Shown here: positions 823 through 9,207 of the stretch, one piece after another
How positions within the stretch are numbered: position 1 is the first letter of the stretch
Layout of the letters: the number at the start of each line of letters is the position of its first letter
Origin: Alphaproteobacteria bacterium
Lineage (GTDB): Bacteria > Pseudomonadota > Alphaproteobacteria > SP197
Assembly (NCBI GenBank): GCA_964291415.2
Contig: OZ219917.1
Coordinates: 288,001-352,000 of the forward strand
Direction: 5' to 3'
DNA: 64,000 nucleotides
The notes under the pieces: model-generated
What the model was told of the DNA's origin: nothing
The model's input: the letters and a program-made list of their open reading frames with translations, nothing else
Database searches by the model: none
Made by a program: the position numbers and the translations under genes

Positions 823-2037
823 CTAGTTCCTGATGATGTTGTGATCCGGACCGTAGGGGAAACCGGTAATGTTCTCGGCGCCCTTCTCGGTGACCACCAG
901 GATGTCGTGTTCACGGTAGCCACCGGCTCCAGGCTCACCTTCGGGCAGCATGATCATCGGTTCCATGGAGACGACCATTCCCGGCCTGAGTTCCGTTTCG
1001 ACGTCCTCTCGCAACTCGACGCCTGCCTCACGGCCATAGTAGTGGCACAGCACGCCGAACGAGTGGCCGTATCCGAACGAACGGTACTTGAGGAGATCCC
1101 ATCCGCGATACATCTCGTTGAGTTCGGCGGCTATGTCGCAGCAGCGAGCACCGGGCCTTATCAGCTTCAGCCCTTTCTCATGCACGGCGACGTTCTTTTC
1201 CCAGAGGTCCAGGTGGACGTCTGACGCGTGGTCGCAAAACAAGGTGCGTTCCAGGGCCGTGTAGTAGCCAAAGATCATCGGGAAGGCATTGAGGCTGAGA
1301 ATGTCGCCGGATTCGATCCGTCTGTTGGTGACCGGATTGTGGGCACCGTCGGTATTGATTCCCGACTGGAACCAGGTCCACGTATCCATGGGCTCGACAT
1401 AGGGATGGTTGCTGGCAATCTCCCTCACCATCGCGTCCGTTGTTGCGATAGCCACCTCGTGTTCGGGAACACCTGCCGCAATCGCGTCGACGCATGCCCA
1501 GCCGCCTATGTCACAGGTCCGCGCGCCCTCCTTGATGAGCTCAATCTCTTCCTCGGACTTGATGGTGCGCATCCACATTGAGGGTTGGGCGCAATCGACG
1601 AGCTCCACTGCCGGCAGCGCCTCCTCAAGAAGCCGCCTGTAGTCAAGATTGACATGATCGAACTCAATTCCGAGCCGCTTGACGCCGGGAGTGAGCTGCT
1701 TCAATGCCCGGAAGAAGCTGTCGCGCCGCCAGTCGGTGTAGGTGACGTTGTCGCCATAGGTCCGTCGCCAGGGCTGTCCTCCGTCGATGCCGGCAGAGAT
1801 GGTCACCGCCTTGTCGTGATCGATAACCATGCCGTACTTGCGACCGAAATAGCAGTAGAGCCACCCGGAGTAGTAGTTGATGCAGTGATACGAGGTGAAC
1901 AGCACGGCATCGACGTCCTCGGATGACATCCATTGACGGATGGCGTCCTGTCGGCGTTGCATTTCCGCCTCCGAGAAGGGTGAATACTCCTTGTCGCCGT
2001 TGTGCCATTTCGTGACATGAAGCATGTCGTCGGTCAT
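823..2037 (-). CDS. Creatinase (creatine amidinohydrolase, M24 fold)
   Basis: WHNGDK..PFS..EM.RRQ N-terminus, TWFQSGINTDGAHNP, GYGHSFGVLCHYYGREAG, GYREHDIL; start trimmed to ATG 2037. Confidence 0.95.
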   Translation of the reverse strand: MTDDMLHVTKWHNGDKEYSPFSEAEMQRRQDAIRQWMSSEDVDAVLFTSYHCINYYSGWLYCYFGRKYGMVIDHDKAVTISAGIDGGQPWRRTYGDNVTYTDWRRDSFFRALKQLTPGVKRLGIEFDHVNLDYRRLLEEALPAVELVDCAQPSMWMRTIKSEEEIELIKEGARTCDIGGWACVDAIAAGVPEHEVAIATTDAMVREIASNHPYVEPMDTWTWFQSGINTDGAHNPVTNRRIESGDILSLNAFPMIFGYYTALERTLFCDHASDVHLDLWEKNVAVHEKGLKLIRPGARCCDIAAELNEMYRGWDLLKYRSFGYGHSFGVLCHYYGREAGVELREDVETELRPGMVVSMEPMIMLPEGEPGAGGYREHDILVVTEKGAENITGFPYGPDHNIIRN

Positions 2038-2599
2038 CGCGAACACCCATTTTCAGTTGTCAAGTCAGCAAGATTGAGGACGTTACGCGATTCCGTTTGC
2101 GCGACGCAATTTGTTCTTCTTATGCCATGATTAGTCGGTTGAATGTGCTATCGAAAGCAACACTATCGCTCGGCATGGAGTCTTGACCTTGCAACCCGAG
2201 AAAGGTTGTCGGGTGCGTTTGCGTGTCACCATCGAACGAGTGTGTCGGATCACTGCGAATTCCGTGATCACCACCATGTGACCCGCATTGGATTGCTTCG
2301 CCGCTTCATCGTCACGGATTCCGGGGTGGACGAGATCACGACCACGCCTCGCCTCTTCTGGTAGCGCGAACTCCGCAAGGCGGTGTGGCAGCGGCCCGGC
2401 GATGGATCGACATGTCGCACGTGATCGGCTGCCGCAAGCAGGGGATGATCATTGAACCGCGCCAGGGAATGGCCGGCAGCGGCAATCAGGAAGGTCACAC
2501 GGGGTGTGAAACCGCAGGGAGGTCGGTGAGCGGTGGTCGTTGCGCCCGCCGGCCTTGTCGAACCGGTTCATGTCACCCGACCGACGTGCCGGCCCTCGC

Positions 2600-3382
2600 C
2601 TACGGTCCGTAGGCTCCTGCCGTCGCGTCGTTCCCGCCGTCGACAACCAGCGTCGTCCCGGTCACGTAGCTCGCCTCATCGGAGGCCAGAAACAGAATGC
2701 ACCGGGCAACCTCACCGGCACTGGCAACGCGGCGCATCGGGATGCCGGCGGCGAAGTTCCGCAGGTTCTCGTCGAAGTCTCCCCCCTGGTCGTGCAGCAT
2801 CCTGTCCAGCATCTCCGTATGGGTCTCGCCCGGGCACACGGCGTTCACCCGGATACCCTCGGCCGCATGATCGAGCGCCATGCAGCGGGTCATCTGCACG
2901 ATGGCACCCTTGCTGGTGCAATAGGCGACGTAGTTCGCCTCCCCGTTCAGGCCCCATTCCGATGCCGTATTCACGATGCAGCCGCTTCCCTGCGCACTCA
3001 TCTGCCTGAGGGCAGCGCGACTCATGAAGAAGACGGAGCTGACGTTGACCGTCATCGTCTCGTCCCAGGCGTGATCCGATGTCGTGAGGGCCGTGCCTTC
3101 GTGGAGAACCCCGGCATTGTTCACAAGGATGTCGAGACGGCCGAAGCGATGGACACATTCGGACACCAAACGGTCGCACTCGGCACGCTCCGACAGGTCC
3201 GCCTGGCAGAACTCGGCAGTACCTCCGTGTCCCGCAATCTCCGCACAGATGTTTGCGCCTCGTTCCGCATTGCGCCCGGTGACCAGCACCCGGGCCCCCT
3301 GTGCCGCAAAGGCTCGGACACTCGCCTCGCCGATCCCCGTGGTGGAGCCTGTCACCAGCACTGACTTGTCGCTAAAGCTCAT
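2600..3382 (-). CDS. SDR family NAD(P)-dependent oxidoreductase
   Basis: TGSTTGIG, NNAG, YCTSKG (YxxxK); start at MSFSDK. Confidence 0.9.
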   Translation of the reverse strand: MSFSDKSVLVTGSTTGIGEASVRAFAAQGARVLVTGRNAERGANICAEIAGHGGTAEFCQADLSERAECDRLVSECVHRFGRLDILVNNAGVLHEGTALTTSDHAWDETMTVNVSSVFFMSRAALRQMSAQGSGCIVNTASEWGLNGEANYVAYCTSKGAIVQMTRCMALDHAAEGIRVNAVCPGETHTEMLDRMLHDQGGDFDENLRNFAAGIPMRRVASAGEVARCILFLASDEASYVTGTTLVVDGGNDATAGAYGP

Positions 3383-3652
3383 CGTGCTTCCTCTGGCTTT
3401 CGTGGATCGTTTTCTCAAGGACGATGGTACCACTTGGGCATGTGTTCGTCAGGCGCTCACGCCGCACCGGACGACGAATGGCGCCGCTTCTTCAACGAAC
3501 CGTGCGCCCATGCAGTCTCACAACAGTGATCGAAGGCGCCATTGTGTTAACGTCGGGCACATTCGTCTAACCTCCAAGAGTGCCATGCGTGAGGCACGGA
3601 CCGTTCGGTATGTCGCTGCGTGTGGCGAGCTCGATTCACCACGGGTCACGTC

Positions 3653-4072
3653 ATGCTCACCTACACCACCGCATCGATGCTTGAAGAACTCTCCGAATGG
3701 CCGCCAATTGCCGAGATTCCGGGTGCCCGTGTGCTACAGGGCGAGCCTCGCCATTTCGGGCGCCTGGACATCGGGGATTTCGAATCCGACTTCATGCTGG
3801 GTGTGTGGGAGTGCACGGAAGGGACATTCGAATGGACCGAGGTCGGCTTCGAGTTGCAGACACTTGTGGCGGGGCGTCTTCGCATTACCGAGCAGGACGG
3901 CACCGTGCATGATCTTGCCGCGGGCGACACCTACTTCACGCGCAAGGGAGACTGCATGACCTGGGAGGTCATCGAAAGGATCAAGAAGGTCTTCTTTGCC
4001 TTCAACAGCGAGGGTGCCTTCGCCGCCGCATTCGGGCGATTGACGTCCGGCGACCGGGTGCTTCGCGTCTGA
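3653..4072 (+). CDS. Cupin domain protein (DUF861/EutQ-like)
   Basis: GVWECTEGTF..E...LVAGRLRIT..G....L.AGD..F..G...TWEV....KKVF pattern. Confidence 0.8.
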   Translation: MLTYTTASMLEELSEWPPIAEIPGARVLQGEPRHFGRLDIGDFESDFMLGVWECTEGTFEWTEVGFELQTLVAGRLRITEQDGTVHDLAAGDTYFTRKGDCMTWEVIERIKKVFFAFNSEGAFAAAFGRLTSGDRVLRV

Positions 4073-4344
4073 CAGGCGTGCCAACCGTTCAGGAGTCGGG
4101 AGCATCGCATCCCTGCGGCCTGAATCGTGGCACACGGCCTCATCCACAACACAATCCCGCCCCACTGGATGTAACAGGGCATCCTCGCCGTCACACTTCC
4201 TTGGTGCCGAGGAGGCGCTGGCCGGCTTTTCGGTGCTTGTTCGCTGTCTCGGCGATATGATCGCGGCACTCGATCTCAATCCGGTGATCGCCGTCGATGC
4301 CCTCGTCGTGCCAAGCGCCTGATTGACACAACCGGGAGGGAAGC

Positions 4345-5514
4345 ATGGCCATCATCAACCGGATCGCGGACTGGCAGGCCGACATGACCCGCTGGCGGCG
4401 CGACATTCATGCGCACCCGGAAACGGCCTTCGAGGAAACCAGGACCTCCGAGGTGGTCGCGGGCCTGCTCGACACGTTCGGCATCGAGGTCCATCGCGGC
4501 CTGGCCGGCACCGGCGTGGTGGGAACGCTGAAATCCGGCGACGGAGCGAGGCATATCGGCCTCAGGGCCGATCTCGACGCCCTCGACCTCCACGAGAAGA
4601 ACGATTTCGACCACCGCTCGACCCACGACGGGAAGATGCATGCCTGCGGTCATGACGGCCACACCGCCATGCTGCTGGGAGCGGCGCGCTATCTCTCCGA
4701 GACACGCAACTTCGACGGCACGGTCCACTTCATCTTCCAGCCCGCCGAGGAGAACGAGGGGGGCGGCCGGGTGATGATCGAGGACGGCCTCTTCGATCTC
4801 TTTCCCTGCGAGGAAGTCTACGGCATGCACAACGCACCGGGTCTCGAGGTCGGGCGCTTCGCCGTGCGCGAGGGGCCGTTTCTCGCTGCATTCGACATCT
4901 TCGAAGTGGTCATCAAGGGCACCGGCACCCATGCCGCCATGCCCGATCGCGGCGCCGATCCCATGGTCCCGGCCGCCCAGGCAGTGCTGGCGCTCCAGGC
5001 GCTGGCATCGCGCGAGATCTCGCCGCTCGACACCGTCGTCATCAGCGTCACGCAGATCCATGGCGGCGACACCTGGAATGTCATTCCCGACGAGATCGTC
5101 CTGAGGGGAACCTGCCGGTGGTTCGAGGAGTCGGTCAGGGACGCCCTCGAGACATCCATGCGGCGCATCGTGGAGAGCATCGCGTCGGCCCACCGCTGCG
5201 AGGCCACCCTGCACTACGAGCGCCGCTATCCGGCGACGGTCAACAGTGAGCAGCAGACGGCCTTCGCCAGCGAGGTTGCCGCCGGACTCGTCGGCACAGG
5301 GAACGTGGAGAGATCGCACCAGCCGGTGATGGGATCGGAGGACTTCGCCTTCATGCTTCAGGAGAAACCCGGCTGCTACATTCTGATCGGCAACGGATCC
5401 GCCGAGGGCGGCTGCCTTCTCCACAATCCGCACTACGACTTCAACGACGACATCCTCGCCCTGGGAGCGAGCTACTGGGCACGCATCGCGGAATCGGCGC
5501 TGCCCCGGCCCTGA
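4345..5514 (+). CDS. M20D amidohydrolase (hippurate hydrolase-like)
   Basis: HAHPETAFEE, LRADLDAL, MHACGHDGH, FQPAEE, GSEDF; RBS GGGAGG upstream. Confidence 0.92.
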   Translation: MAIINRIADWQADMTRWRRDIHAHPETAFEETRTSEVVAGLLDTFGIEVHRGLAGTGVVGTLKSGDGARHIGLRADLDALDLHEKNDFDHRSTHDGKMHACGHDGHTAMLLGAARYLSETRNFDGTVHFIFQPAEENEGGGRVMIEDGLFDLFPCEEVYGMHNAPGLEVGRFAVREGPFLAAFDIFEVVIKGTGTHAAMPDRGADPMVPAAQAVLALQALASREISPLDTVVISVTQIHGGDTWNVIPDEIVLRGTCRWFEESVRDALETSMRRIVESIASAHRCEATLHYERRYPATVNSEQQTAFASEVAAGLVGTGNVERSHQPVMGSEDFAFMLQEKPGCYILIGNGSAEGGCLLHNPHYDFNDDILALGASYWARIAESALPRP

Positions 5515-5523
5515 TCATGCCGG
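5489..5523. repeat. Left direct repeat bounding the P450/SMT cassette
   Basis: CGGAATCGGCGCTGCCCCGGCCCTGATCATGCCGG; the 19-bp core CCGGCCCTGATCATGCCGG (5505-5523) recurs exactly at 9222-9240. Confidence 0.85.
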
Positions 5524-5688
5524 CGCCCGGGAGCAGGCTGTTCGGCAGCCATCTTCGCTTGCGTGGACGAAGGACATCGGCGTGGCGACGTCCACGCGGC
5601 CGGCTTCCAAGAACGCCGCAGCGGCAAGGTTCAGGCGGCCTGAAACTCGGGTCGCGCCGTTTCCCTGAATTCCGGAGCTTGCAGTGCG

Positions 5689-7713
5689 TCAGGCAGGCAG
5701 TTCGCGCAACTGCTCGGTGATCCGGAACTTGAGCTTCTCGCTCGGCTTCAACGAGGGAAGCGGGGCGAAGGGCAGCGCATCGACGTAACGCTGAGGCGTG
5801 ACCTCGAGGGTGAAGTAATGGGCGATCATCAGCACGTTGATCGCCAGCTGCAGATCCATCCACCGCGCGCCGAGGCACCGGTGCGTGCCGAGCCCGTAGG
5901 GCGCGTAGCCGGGATTGCGGTGTTCGTCGCGGGGCGATGCATAGCGGTCGATGTCGAACGAGAACGGATCGGGGAAGATGTCTTCCATGTAATGCCCGGC
6001 GGTCTGGGCGATGTAGACCCGCGATCCCACCGGTATTTCATGGCCTTCCAGCACGAAGGAATTCATCACGTCCCGCAACGACATCGGAACGATCGGATAC
6101 ATCCGGAGGCATTCCATCAGAAAGCGGTGCGTGACATCCATCGAGGCCGGGTTGAAGTCCTCCGCGTCCGGATCGCCGTTCGCGAACAGGGCGTCGGCCT
6201 CGGCCCGGATCCGCTTGTAGAGCTCGGGCTGCGCCGCCATGGCGTAGACCGCGAAGCTCAGTGAGTCGCCGAGATAGACGCTCGCGACCAGTGCCGCGGA
6301 CAGCACGAATCGCAGGTTGGATTCCGGCATCAGCTGCGGATCGCTCGCGTGCAGGCTCAGCCAGTCGTCGGAGAGGGTGCGCGGACACCCGGCGCGCTGG
6401 GCCGGCGTATGGACGGCCTGGATACGCTGCAGCAGCGTATCGACAGCCCGCGCCCGGCGCTTCATCCCCGGCGTTCTCAGCATGAACCTGGGCAGTGCGT
6501 TGATGATATGGGTGGTGAGCGCGCGCTCCTTGAAGACCATCAGCTCGTCGATGATGTCCTGCGTTTCGACGTTGAGAAAGAGCGGCGAGAGCTGGGCGTT
6601 GACCATTCGTCGGTACCCGCGCACAGGGAAGGTCTCCCCGACCTTCCAGTCCGACATGTAGTGGCGGGTAAAGCGGTACATGTCGTCCAGCCGGCCTGCC
6701 AGCCGATTGCGCGAATAGGCCGGACCCATGGCCTTGCGGAGCCGGAAGTGGTCCGGGCCATCGAGCGACGGCAACACGCCGTGCGCGCCGTAGAGCCTCT
6801 CGAAGGCGGCGAAATAGCCCCCCGCCTTCAGGTGCATCCGCCCGTGACGATGCACCCATGCATTGGCCTGCGGCCCGCCGATGAAGATCATGGGTTTGCC
6901 GAAGGGCCGGCGGATCTGGAACACCGGGCCGTATTGTTCGGTCAGATCCGAGAAGAGCGCAGGGACGTTGCCGCTCCGCAGATGCCGGTTCCGCAGCACC
7001 CGGAGAAGCGGAACTGCGGGGATCGGTTTGTTCAGCGTCGAACGCCGGAGCATCGGGGTGGCGATGTTGTGCTCGACCGCGGCGGCGATGGAGCGGCCGA
7101 TCATGTCCATTCGGCAGATGAGATCGATCCGCTCCTGGGTCTCGTCATCGATATCGAACATGAAGCGGAAGACGTCGCACGTGTTGACGAGGCAAATGAC
7201 GATGATGTCCCTGGGGCCGGGAATCTCGTCGGTGAAGAGCACCTTGAGGATACGCGTTCTGACGAACTGGCCGACGGTGCCTTGCTGCGCGCCGCCGGCC
7301 AACTCCTCGTGCCACGTCGTGGCGGCCAGCGTCCAGAAATCGCCGTCGTGATGTTCCAGGACCTTCAACTCGACCAGGCGGTCGAGGGTCCGGTCGATGA
7401 TCGATTCCGCCTGGCCGGCGAGCCGTTCGATCCAGTAGACGGCATCCCGCTGAACGGTCTCCCCGGCGATTTCCTTCAAGAGGGGATCGAGCACGGCGTC
7501 GCCGGTTTCCGTCGCATCCACGAGAATCAGTGATTCGAGATCCGTGTCGATGCGCCCCATCAGCGAGAGCTCCGCAAGCGCCGCGCCGACCACGGCGCAG
7601 TTCAGATTCCAGCCCCGCACCTGGTGGAAATAGCCGGTCTGCTCGTTGAGGAGAGTCAGGATGAACTCCTCGACCAGGCTCCGCTTCTGGGTCGCCGCCG
7701 TCGAATCTGGCAT
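5689..7713 (-). CDS. Fusion of N-terminal GPP34 (GOLPH3/Vps74-like) domain and C-terminal cytochrome P450
   Basis: N-term SLVEEFILTLLNEQTG...AVVGAALAELSLMGRID....TGDAVLDPLL (GPP34-like); C-term ECLR (ExxR), FDIDRY, PYGLGTHRCLG heme-Cys loop. Confidence 0.85.
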   Translation of the reverse strand: MPDSTAATQKRSLVEEFILTLLNEQTGYFHQVRGWNLNCAVVGAALAELSLMGRIDTDLESLILVDATETGDAVLDPLLKEIAGETVQRDAVYWIERLAGQAESIIDRTLDRLVELKVLEHHDGDFWTLAATTWHEELAGGAQQGTVGQFVRTRILKVLFTDEIPGPRDIIVICLVNTCDVFRFMFDIDDETQERIDLICRMDMIGRSIAAAVEHNIATPMLRRSTLNKPIPAVPLLRVLRNRHLRSGNVPALFSDLTEQYGPVFQIRRPFGKPMIFIGGPQANAWVHRHGRMHLKAGGYFAAFERLYGAHGVLPSLDGPDHFRLRKAMGPAYSRNRLAGRLDDMYRFTRHYMSDWKVGETFPVRGYRRMVNAQLSPLFLNVETQDIIDELMVFKERALTTHIINALPRFMLRTPGMKRRARAVDTLLQRIQAVHTPAQRAGCPRTLSDDWLSLHASDPQLMPESNLRFVLSAALVASVYLGDSLSFAVYAMAAQPELYKRIRAEADALFANGDPDAEDFNPASMDVTHRFLMECLRMYPIVPMSLRDVMNSFVLEGHEIPVGSRVYIAQTAGHYMEDIFPDPFSFDIDRYASPRDEHRNPGYAPYGLGTHRCLGARWMDLQLAINVLMIAHYFTLEVTPQRYVDALPFAPLPSLKPSEKLKFRITEQLRELPA

Positions 7714-8053
7714 CGTTTCCCCCGCACATTCGGTCGTCACGCGGGACGTCGCAGGCATGCTGCGACGTTCGAGGTGGGGTGCCGTCCGTCGGCCGGCACG
7801 CGCCTCCCACTCGTAGTGTGGGTGTCGATTCTACCCTGCCTCCCGTCTCCCGTCACTCCATTTGGTGCATTCACCACACGTTCTGCCTTGCGTGTCGTGA
7901 AGCGGCCGTTGTGTTCGTCAGCGACGGGGACCGCGGTGAACGGCGCCACCTCTCCTGTGCCGCCCTTGCATGTGATAAGGATAGAGGCTGCGGCGGTTTC
8001 AACGAACGCGCGCGATGCACATGTCCTCCGCTGACGGAACAGGAAAACTGCGC

Positions 8054-9079
8054 ATGTCCATCAATCTCTCCAGATCCCTGTGGAACGCGTACCGGGGCTG
8101 GGACGTCAGGAGGCGCGTCGCACGCTTTGGCGGCCGGTTTGACGCAATGAGACAGGCCGATGGCGTCGACTGCGACTTCACGGAGACGGTGAACGACTAC
8201 TATGATCTGTGCAGCGAATTCATGCAGTTCGGGTGGGGCGAGTCGCTGCACTTCGCGCCATTGGCGCGCGGGGAATCGCTGGAGGAATCCGTCGTTCGCC
8301 ATCAGCGCCTGATGATCGGAAAGCTGGACTTGCGGGAGGGCATGGTGGTTGCCGACATCGGCTGTGGAGTGGGCGGTCCCATGCGGCGGGTCGCCCGCGA
8401 GAGCGGCGCCAGGGTTGTCTGCATCAACAACAATGAACAGCAACTGGACAAGGCCAGACGGAGGAACATCGAGACCGGGCTCGATGACATGGCGGAGTAC
8501 ATCAAGTGCGACTTCATGGACATGAGTGCGATTGAAGCCTGCTCGTTCGATGCGGGTTATGCGATCGAGTCGACCTGCCACGCGCCGGACAAGGAGCGCG
8601 CGTTTGCCGAAATCCATCGTGTGCTCAAACCGGGAGCCCGGCTGTGGGGTCAGGAGATGTGCCTGACGAACAGGTACGACCCCGACGACCACCTTCATCG
8701 CGCCATGAAGGACGAGCTCAAGCGGGGAATCGCCCTCAACGAGATCGCCACGTTTGCCGAGGTGGATCGCGCGCTGGAGGCTGCGGGATTCGTCGTCATG
8801 GAAGCAGCGGACAGGGACGTCAGGGAAGGCCATGGCATACCCTGGTATCGGCCCCTGGAGAGTCGGAGCGGGACGTTGCGCAACGTGTTTCGCAGGACGC
8901 CCTTGGGCCGCAAGGCGGTCATCGCGGGTGCGCGGATGGCGGAAGCGTTCCGGTTCTTTCCGAGGGGCTCCACGGACGTTGTCCGATTGATGGACCGGAC
9001 AGCCGACGCCTACGTCGCGGGCGGCAAGACGGGCATATTCACGCCGCTCTACTGCTTCGTCGCCCGCAAGCCCGACTGA
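8054..9079 (+). CDS. Sterol 24-C-methyltransferase (ERG6/SMT1-like SAM-dependent methyltransferase)
   Basis: VNDYYDL..EFMQFGWGESLHFA, DIGCGVGGP, YAIESTCHAP, C-terminal GGKTGIFTPLY..VARKP, all characteristic SMT regions. Confidence 0.88.
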   Translation: MSINLSRSLWNAYRGWDVRRRVARFGGRFDAMRQADGVDCDFTETVNDYYDLCSEFMQFGWGESLHFAPLARGESLEESVVRHQRLMIGKLDLREGMVVADIGCGVGGPMRRVARESGARVVCINNNEQQLDKARRRNIETGLDDMAEYIKCDFMDMSAIEACSFDAGYAIESTCHAPDKERAFAEIHRVLKPGARLWGQEMCLTNRYDPDDHLHRAMKDELKRGIALNEIATFAEVDRALEAAGFVVMEAADRDVREGHGIPWYRPLESRSGTLRNVFRRTPLGRKAVIAGARMAEAFRFFPRGSTDVVRLMDRTADAYVAGGKTGIFTPLYCFVARKPD

Positions 9080-9207
9080 GTCGATGCCATTGTCCGGTCG
9101 GTCAGAAGCGCTTCACAGCAGTGCCGGTCGTTGCGCGCAAGAAGGAAGAGTCGACGACCGTGAGCACGACCGGGCAATCCGGCGCCCGAGCGGGCCGCCA
9201 TTCGATC

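Follow-up and report, generated by a model that had tools for sequence, protein, structure and literature searches.

The question raised by this locus is why a bacterium in whose genome no gene for the cyclisation of squalene is found should carry a methyltransferase of the sterol family next to a cytochrome P450. The two divergent genes are located in a 64-kb stretch of DNA, called the window here (alphaproteobacterial assembly GCA_964291415.2, contig OZ219917.1, positions 288,001 to 352,000). One of them encodes a protein in which a GPP34 domain is fused to a P450, and the other, named SMT-A here, encodes a member of the sterol C-24 methyltransferase (SMT) family. On the basis of sequence comparisons it is proposed, with a probability of about 0.6, that the pair constitutes the core of a module which tailors sterols not made by the cell itself. 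The proposal is built on four things that are directly observed: the domain content of the proteins, the linkage of their genes, the co-occurrence of these genes among related genomes and the missing genes of sterol synthesis.

The coordinates of the pair are given in Table 1. A sequence-only reading of the window had described two divergent open reading frames with a spacer of about 340 bp, a GPP34-like N-terminal domain followed by a P450 in one, and the SMT motifs YYDL..FGWGESLHF, GCGVGGP, IESTCHAP and GIFTP in the other. This layout is borne out when the starts supported by homologues are used, and all the quoted motifs are present. The Pfam match to GPP34 is well above its cut-off, that to p450 covers residues 432-659 with 112.6 bits, and solved P450 structures can be aligned over residues 260-661. 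Both domains occur in 120 of the 120 best database homologues, with lengths of 627-700 residues, and 40 genome loci encode the fusion, so the architecture is not an artefact of assembly. SMT-A matches Methyltransf_11 (PF08241) with 68.6 bits and Sterol_MT_C (PF08498) with 63.8 bits against a cut-off of 21.7, as expected for a member of the SMT family.

Table 1. Positions of the pair within the window and of related genes on the same contig (C1)
Feature	Position	Strand	Remarks
GPP34-P450 fusion gene	5689..7758	-	689-aa open reading frame; likely start M16 at nt 7713, giving 674 aa
Cytochrome P450 domain	5692..7026	-	about residues 245-689
GPP34 (GOLPH3/Vps74-like) domain	7072..7677	-	residues 28-229; PF05719, 98.1 bits (cut-off 29.1)
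Divergent intergenic spacer	7714..8053	.	340 nt between homologue-supported starts
Sigma-70-like site in the spacer	7856-7828	-	single site; consensus match, no evidence of function
SMT-A gene	8015..9079	+	354-aa open reading frame; likely start M14 at nt 8054; Region I FMQFGWGESLHF
Rest of the type II gene set	C1:404.9-413.2 kb		same contig, at a distance of 110 kb
Decayed second fusion copy	C1:410771-411040	-	86-90-aa C-terminal fragment, between the RND and LolA-like genes

The genome of the window consists of 4.44 Mb in five contigs and is 100% complete by marker genes, with 9% contamination. The window itself contains no cyclase or epoxidase gene, in agreement with the sequence-only reading. 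In the whole genome the family search gave no match to SQHop_cyclase, and the protein search gave no match to the fused squalene epoxidase-oxidosqualene cyclase (SE-OSC) of relatives. No CYP51 was found, the best match being only 24% identical, and there was no match to ERG4_ERG24. The genome therefore does not qualify as one with de novo sterol synthesis. Since cyclase, CYP51 and ERG24 matches are all missing from a complete genome, an outside source of sterol is likely, which supports the exogenous substrate suggested from the window alone; a marginal match to the squalene epoxidase family is considered below.

The neighbourhoods of related fusions point in the same direction. A scan for the fusion in one genome per species gave 40 loci, all from records titled as metagenome-assembled genomes (MAGs), and neighbours were counted within 6 kb on either side. 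A sterol-type partner, namely SE-OSC, CYP51, an SMT or a transporter of the resistance-nodulation-division (RND) family of sterol-sensing type, is present at 38 of the 40 loci, so that the sterol context proposed for the pair holds among its relatives; loci L009 and L036 have no such partner. The RND transporter is found at 27/40 loci, and its representative matches the MMPL, Patched and Sterol-sensing domains. An SMT of any type occurs at 17/40 loci, an SE-OSC of about 1110 residues at 15/40 and a LolA-like protein at 13/40. CYP51 with the I-helix AGQHTS and a Rieske oxygenase are each found at 5/40 loci, and squalene synthase at 3/40.

Co-occurrence was assessed in 39 fusion-bearing MAGs and in a control set of 300 other genomes sampled evenly from the same class. 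A Sterol_MT_C gene is present in 34 of the 39 against 3 of the 300, two of these three being marginal (E about 1e-4), and the full-length fusion is found in none of the 300. The joint occurrence of fusion and SMT, on which the sequence-only proposal had been made to depend, is thus seen. A cyclase is present in 28 of the 39 fusion genomes, in 25 of them as a long epoxidase-cyclase frame. The converse scan, with the SMT of the window as the query, gave 37 metagenome loci; as some of these are duplicates from parallel assemblies, they cannot be counted as independent. The fusion is matched over at least 300 residues at 15 of the loci and over at least 80 residues at 19, a Rieske gene occurs at 12, and no partner is seen at 15, many of which have short flanks. 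The SMT and fusion genes are arranged in tandem with the fusion first in 11 cases, divergently in 9, convergently in 4 and in tandem with the SMT first in 1. With four gene orders on record, the linkage survives rearrangement.

In a tree of 54 fusion proteins two groups are separated, type I (20 rows) and type II (17 rows), the latter being the clade of the window protein. All type I rows come from cyclase-bearing genomes, and the type I fusion adjoins RND and SE-OSC genes, while type II comes mostly from cyclase-less genomes and adjoins SMT-A. Two genomes, G036 and G038, have two paralogues each, a type I fusion beside SE-OSC and a type II fusion beside SMT-A. The full type II clusters are larger than the pair. 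Locus L098 contains genes for a flavoprotein, a LolA-like protein, a DUF1302-like protein, the fusion, a canonical SMT, an RND transporter, a Rieske protein and SMT-A; L102 contains the fusion, DUF1302-like, LolA-like, RND, SMT-A, flavoprotein and Rieske genes. Another type II cluster, L099, has the fusion, Rieske, RND and SMT-A genes together with a second SMT.

In the window genome the same set is present in two parts. The distant part (Table 1) encodes an LkcE-like flavoprotein of the amine-oxidase type, a Rieske/KshA_C oxygenase, an HAE3/HpnN-like RND transporter, a LolA-like protein and a DUF1302-like protein, with a decayed copy of the fusion among them. The view of the pair as a self-contained two-gene system has therefore to be given up, as the module includes another five genes. 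The closest relative of the Rieske protein is KshA in the PDB (E 1e-18) and SdmA in NCBIfam (36 bits, cut-off 600), and the RND protein of the module is nearest to HpnN. The resemblances of the P450 to CYP51, of the Rieske protein to KshA and SdmA and of the RND protein to HpnN may be taken as independent, although weak, steroid signals. Elsewhere in the genome, at G000:C2:52016-59975, the strongest Pfam P450 match of the genome (290 bits) adjoins an RND-like gene and three envelope-type open reading frames; this may be a parallel module of P450 and lipid transport.

The P450 part of the fusion appears to be an intact enzyme. The translation contains both motifs characteristic of P450s, with YGLGTHRCLG as the heme-thiolate loop (FxxGxxxCxG) and ECLR as ExxR, and the heme cysteine C613 and the ExxR residues E534 and R537 are invariant in an alignment of 44 sequences. 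This suggests a functional enzyme, one which needs cytoplasmic redox partners; a hydrophobic N-terminal signal could not be read in the translation. The AlphaFold model of the fusion has a pLDDT of 85.5 and a pTM of 0.82. The nearest solved structure to the P450 part is Methylococcus capsulatus CYP51 6mcw (Foldseek E 5e-16, TMt 0.79, 22% identity). The top structural and sequence matches, M. capsulatus CYP51, CYP184A1 and CYP120A1, are only 18-22% identical, so the P450 represents a family of its own. The search of the ESM Atlas with this part returned generic P450 clusters only, and NCBIfam has no equivalog for the fusion or for the SMT. The CYP51 signature of the I-helix is AGQHTS; the fusion has YLGDSLS in this position, is only about 21-22% identical to solved CYP51s and cannot be assigned to CYP51. 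A role of the fusion P450 as the 14-demethylase of the cluster was rejected, since related clusters contain another P450 (C9) which is itself a CYP51 and carries AGQHTS in its I-helix. Replacement of a C-4 demethylase is also unlikely, given that a Rieske gene co-occurs with the fusion.

The GPP34 part has the expected fold: its profile matches GOLPH3 (PDB 3kn1) with E 5e-11 and Vps74 with E 8e-10. In GOLPH3 the pocket for phosphatidylinositol 4-phosphate (PI4P) is formed by R90, R171 and R174, with W81 packing (PMC2806290). In the fusion the three positions are occupied by I/V, E and I, and the posterior probability of these columns is high; for W81 two alignments leave the assignment ambiguous. 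The domain therefore lacks the arginines of the recognised pocket, and the docking through PI4P that had been considered from the eukaryotic analogy is not upheld. The prediction of a complex between the whole fusion and residues 41-341 of SMT-A gave a score of 0.00, that is no answer, and is neutral on binding.

Several other arrangements of these domains were seen. In the control sample of the class, genomes G158 and G087 each have an unfused P450 with 33-35% identity to the P450 part and, elsewhere, a GPP34 gene of its own, which may be a split form, and G237 has a 677-residue open frame that begins with a GPP34 domain. In-frame stop codons are found in the fusion gene L026:6001-8043 and in the SMT genes G034:C2:2882020-2882910 and G023:C4:32102-32887; these may be pseudogenes or errors of MAG assembly.

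SMT-A differs from the known sterol-active enzymes in a particular section of its chain. The SAM-binding Region II (DxGxGxxGP, here ADIGCGVGGP) and the glutamate of Region III (YAIESTCHAP) are kept. Region I reads GWGESLHF, after FMQF, and does not conform to GWGxxFHF; methionine is found at position 81 and leucine at 89, where active SMTs have aromatic residues. The replacement of F89 by leucine occurs in 43 of 43 SMT-A rows of the motif table, and G86 is S or N in many. Residues M57, W61, E63, S64, L65 and F67 are invariant across 37 SMT-A sequences. The clade has identities of 57-100% inside and of at most 48% to the SMTs linked with oxidosqualene cyclase (OSC). The earlier description of this protein as ERG6-type is thus correct as to the family and incorrect as to the canonical type. 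In a recent preprint (10.64898/2025.12.19.695621), from which the region motifs are taken, GWGxxFHF is listed among 25 residues that every SMT acting on desmosterol or 24-methylenecholesterol retains, and it is suggested there that deviating SMTs may need other substrates. The strong conservation of SMT-A suggests that it works, but probably on a side chain of different shape. The window genome has a second SMT with a canonical Region I, GWGQSFHF, at G000:C4:431386-432672 on the - strand; its neighbours are Sulf_transp, a flavocytochrome c sulfide dehydrogenase of sulfur metabolism and an NTP_transf_8 protein.

Four points of the following scheme are inferred: that a sterol is the substrate in the window genome, which way it is transported, what each enzyme does to it and which enzyme acts first. 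As squalene cannot be cyclised by this uncultured alphaproteobacterium, the substrate would most likely be a sterol from the sponge host or from neighbouring symbionts. The RND (HpnN/BstA-like), LolA-like and DUF1302-like proteins would move this sterol across the envelope. The GPP34 domain would hold the P450 at the membrane or feed lipid to it, acting as a module for membrane or lipid handling rather than as a reader of PI4P. The P450 would oxidise or desaturate the sterol, and SMT-A, with its remodelled Region I, would pass the methyl group of S-adenosylmethionine (SAM) to a double bond of the side chain. The distant Rieske (KshA/SdmA-like), LkcE-like flavoprotein and RND genes would act in the same pathway. 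The order of P450 first and SMT-A second is favoured, since SMTs need an olefin, which is often missing in mature host sterols. In its most specific form the scheme would have symbionts without sterol synthesis import host sterol via the RND, LolA-like and DUF1302-like proteins, the P450 add a double bond or an oxygen, and SMT-A, with a widened pocket, alkylate a non-canonical position; from the sequences this version is tentative and, taken as a whole, rather doubtful.

Several observations weigh against a module for sterols of outside origin. The window genome has a match to the squalene epoxidase family of 20.9 bits with a cut-off of 20.1; this match is marginal, and E. coli and Caulobacter are matched likewise. 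Two SQS_PSY genes are present, so that squalene or phytoene may be made. The absence of ERG4_ERG24 is weakly supported, because the search matched no control genome either. SMT-A is not restricted to genomes without cyclase: of 13 fusion genomes with SMT-A, 5 have SE-OSC, 7 are without cyclase and 1 has an SHC-like match only. The loss of OSC and the adjacency of SMT-A give only 3-4 independent contrasts, with a sign test p of 0.5-1, which is not significant, and their apparent association is largely the history of one clade. An SMT is missing in 5 of the 39 fusion genomes, which means that the P450 does not strictly need it, and these 39 MAGs carry no completeness figures. Finally, SMT-A, being off the GWGxxFHF motif, might not take the usual delta-24 sterols.

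It is necessary to compare these results with published systems. The window fusion is a member of the type II clade of the GPP34_L family described in Microbiome 2025 (PMC11706023), with the same two-domain architecture and length. That paper restricts the family to sponge symbionts and proposes that it binds PI4P and controls phagocytosis. The host-effector role proposed there differs from the present result, in which the family is tied to genes that make, methylate and transport sterols and lacks the arginines for PI4P. The words "sterol" and "methyltransferase" have no occurrences in this main text. SMTs from sponge symbionts, some in clusters with OSC and sdmAB, have also been assayed, as the main texts of Brown et al. 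2023 (PMC10070321) and Brown & Welander 2025 (the above preprint) report. They belong to the same Methyltransf_11 and Sterol_MT_C family and the same habitat, and, as in the relatives examined here, their clusters combine Rieske genes of the sdmA kind with an SMO/OSC fusion. In contrast to these OSC-linked enzymes, SMT-A forms a separate clade with M81 and L89 and occurs in genomes without OSC. The two main texts make no mention of P450 or GPP34. A full-text search for GPP34, sterol and symbiont, with supplements outside its scope, gave no paper joining them, except one unrelated review. The statement of the sequence-only reading that no such bacterial system had been described must accordingly be narrowed: the fusion and the sponge-symbiont SMTs are both published, and only the link between them seems undescribed.

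By analogy, the pair most probably works like the side-chain tailoring of eukaryotes, in which ERG6/SMT and a C-22 desaturase P450 (CYP61/ERG5 or CYP710) act on one sterol; the likeness is one of enzyme kind only. The eukaryotic P450s are anchored by an N-terminal transmembrane helix, whereas a GPP34 domain is found here and the substrate is probably exogenous. Among solved structures the window P450 comes closest to CYP51 and CYP120 (about 21% identity), and a role as a C-22 desaturase is a conjecture. Another related system is that of M. capsulatus, which, as described in PMC10942540, has a CYP51-ferredoxin fusion, SdmA/SdmB and BstA/B/C. It likewise combines an RND protein of the MMPL/HpnN type with sterol genes and a Rieske partner, and its CYP51 is the top structural match of the window P450 domain. 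The differences are as follows: the periplasmic and outer-membrane partners are BstB and BstC there and LolA-like and DUF1302-like proteins here, the Rieske protein of the window genome remains far below the cut-off of the SdmA model, and the P450 is without AGQHTS.

The resemblance to sterol enzymes could be historical only, the true substrate being squalene, a hopanoid-like or carotenoid-derived compound or an unsaturated acyl chain. SMT-like enzymes of Botryococcus methylate squalene and botryococcene, and the window genome, with its SQS_PSY genes and without a cyclase, could offer such a substrate; the invariant departure of Region I from sterol-active SMTs and the lack of an NCBIfam equivalog for both proteins would agree with this. 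Nevertheless, orthologous fusions (46-56% identical) adjoin SE-OSC and CYP51 at the loci counted above (15 and 5 of 40), the RND partner shows the sterol-sensing and Patched matches, the closest relatives of the Rieske partner are steroid oxygenases, and a canonical SMT is also found in some type II clusters, such as L098. A non-sterol substrate is therefore considered unlikely. A different possibility is that the steroid is taken up to be degraded or detoxified, with the P450, the KshA-like Rieske protein and the flavoprotein using host steroids as a carbon source in the manner of actinobacterial cholesterol catabolism. A P450, a KshA_C-type Rieske oxygenase, a flavoprotein and an envelope transporter do resemble gene sets of steroid degradation, and among solved structures the Rieske protein comes closest to KshA. 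A SAM-dependent C-methyltransferase, however, fits no known steroid catabolism, the fusions of relatives lie beside the biosynthetic genes of SE-OSC, CYP51 and squalene synthase, and the RND protein belongs to the HpnN/BstA family, which is of export type (PMC10942540). Catabolic uptake is thus quite improbable.

The role proposed for GPP34_L in the main text of PMC11706023 would make the fusion a symbiosis effector which binds host PI4P and hinders the maturation of phagosomes, with the P450 as an accessory and the SMT as incidental. The restriction of the family to sponge symbionts in that paper, the origin of all 40 loci from MAGs and the near-identical pieces in sponge metagenome runs are in keeping with such a role. 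It is difficult to reconcile with the replacement of R90, R171 and R174, the invariant heme-binding and ExxR residues, the conserved presence of genes for sterol synthesis, SMT or lipid transport beside the fusion at 38/40 loci and the lack of a readable hydrophobic N-terminal signal, and it is regarded as very improbable. There is also the explanation that the cell has an endogenous de novo pathway whose cyclase was missed by the assembly, which could be suspected from the cyclases of 28 of the 39 fusion genomes and from a MAG with contamination and five contigs. This is likewise very improbable for a 100% complete genome in which the family and protein searches for cyclase and SE-OSC were empty and CYP51 is lacking. 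Moreover, ten other fusion genomes, beside the closest relatives G001 and G005, are without any cyclase; they include G009, with the fusion on a chromosome 1 record, and G006, with the fusion on a 2.9-Mb contig. The tailoring of sterols supplied from outside remains the preferred interpretation.

The starts M16 and M14 (Table 1) are likely because homologues are mostly 672-676 residues long for the fusion and mostly 343 for SMT-A; with the longest open reading frames the spacer would be 256 nt. The flanks are unrelated to lipid metabolism, with M24 and M20 peptidases, SDR and cupin genes on one side and TauD, FAD oxidase, beta-lactamase-like and CtaA genes on the other. The pair is absent from the same-genus genomes G072 and G249. 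Synteny with them, compared over window positions 2000-9200, is kept at the FAD oxidase, beta-lactamase-like and CtaA genes and broken across SDR-cupin-M20-fusion-SMT-TauD, which indicates that the pair sits in a variable segment.

The habitat of the module is taken from run labels, and all four mapped runs consist of contigs. Contigs at least 95% alike are present in two runs labelled sponge metagenome (two further studies). The metatranscriptome library X22, from sponge and likewise in contigs, contains pieces 85-97% alike over parts of both genes, which is no proof of transcription; in these mappings, stretches without cover carry no meaning. Two regions of the window genome, G000:C3:54000-67000 and G000:C4:31000-45000, are near-identical mirror copies, each with a stand-alone GPP34 gene; contig C3 may thus be a duplicate haplotype and possibly part of the 9% contamination.

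The components of the module are of known kinds. Four things appear to be new: the conserved way in which they are coupled, SMT-A as a clade, a type II module of seven genes and the occurrence of this module in cyclase-less symbionts. The GPP34-P450 protein, which has been proposed as a hallmark of symbiosis with sponges and as a means of host manipulation, gains from its conserved position in sterol clusters a different biochemical role that can be tested. If the most specific version of the scheme is true, bacteria would use the GPP34 domain, read so far as a PI4P effector, to handle lipids for P450s. The LolA-like and DUF1302-like proteins with their RND partner would represent, besides BstABC, another type of sterol transport system in bacteria. 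The P450, the Rieske oxygenase and the flavoprotein beside the SMT are candidate enzymes for sterol chemistry that lacks gene assignments. A distinct and conserved SMT clade in cyclase-less genomes points to bacterial remodelling of host sterols. This bears on the question of which organisms make the unusual sterols of sponges and, through it, on the reading of side-chain-alkylated steranes as animal biomarkers; in the most specific version of the scheme, some 'sponge-specific' sterols and their fossil steranes would be joint products of host and symbiont.

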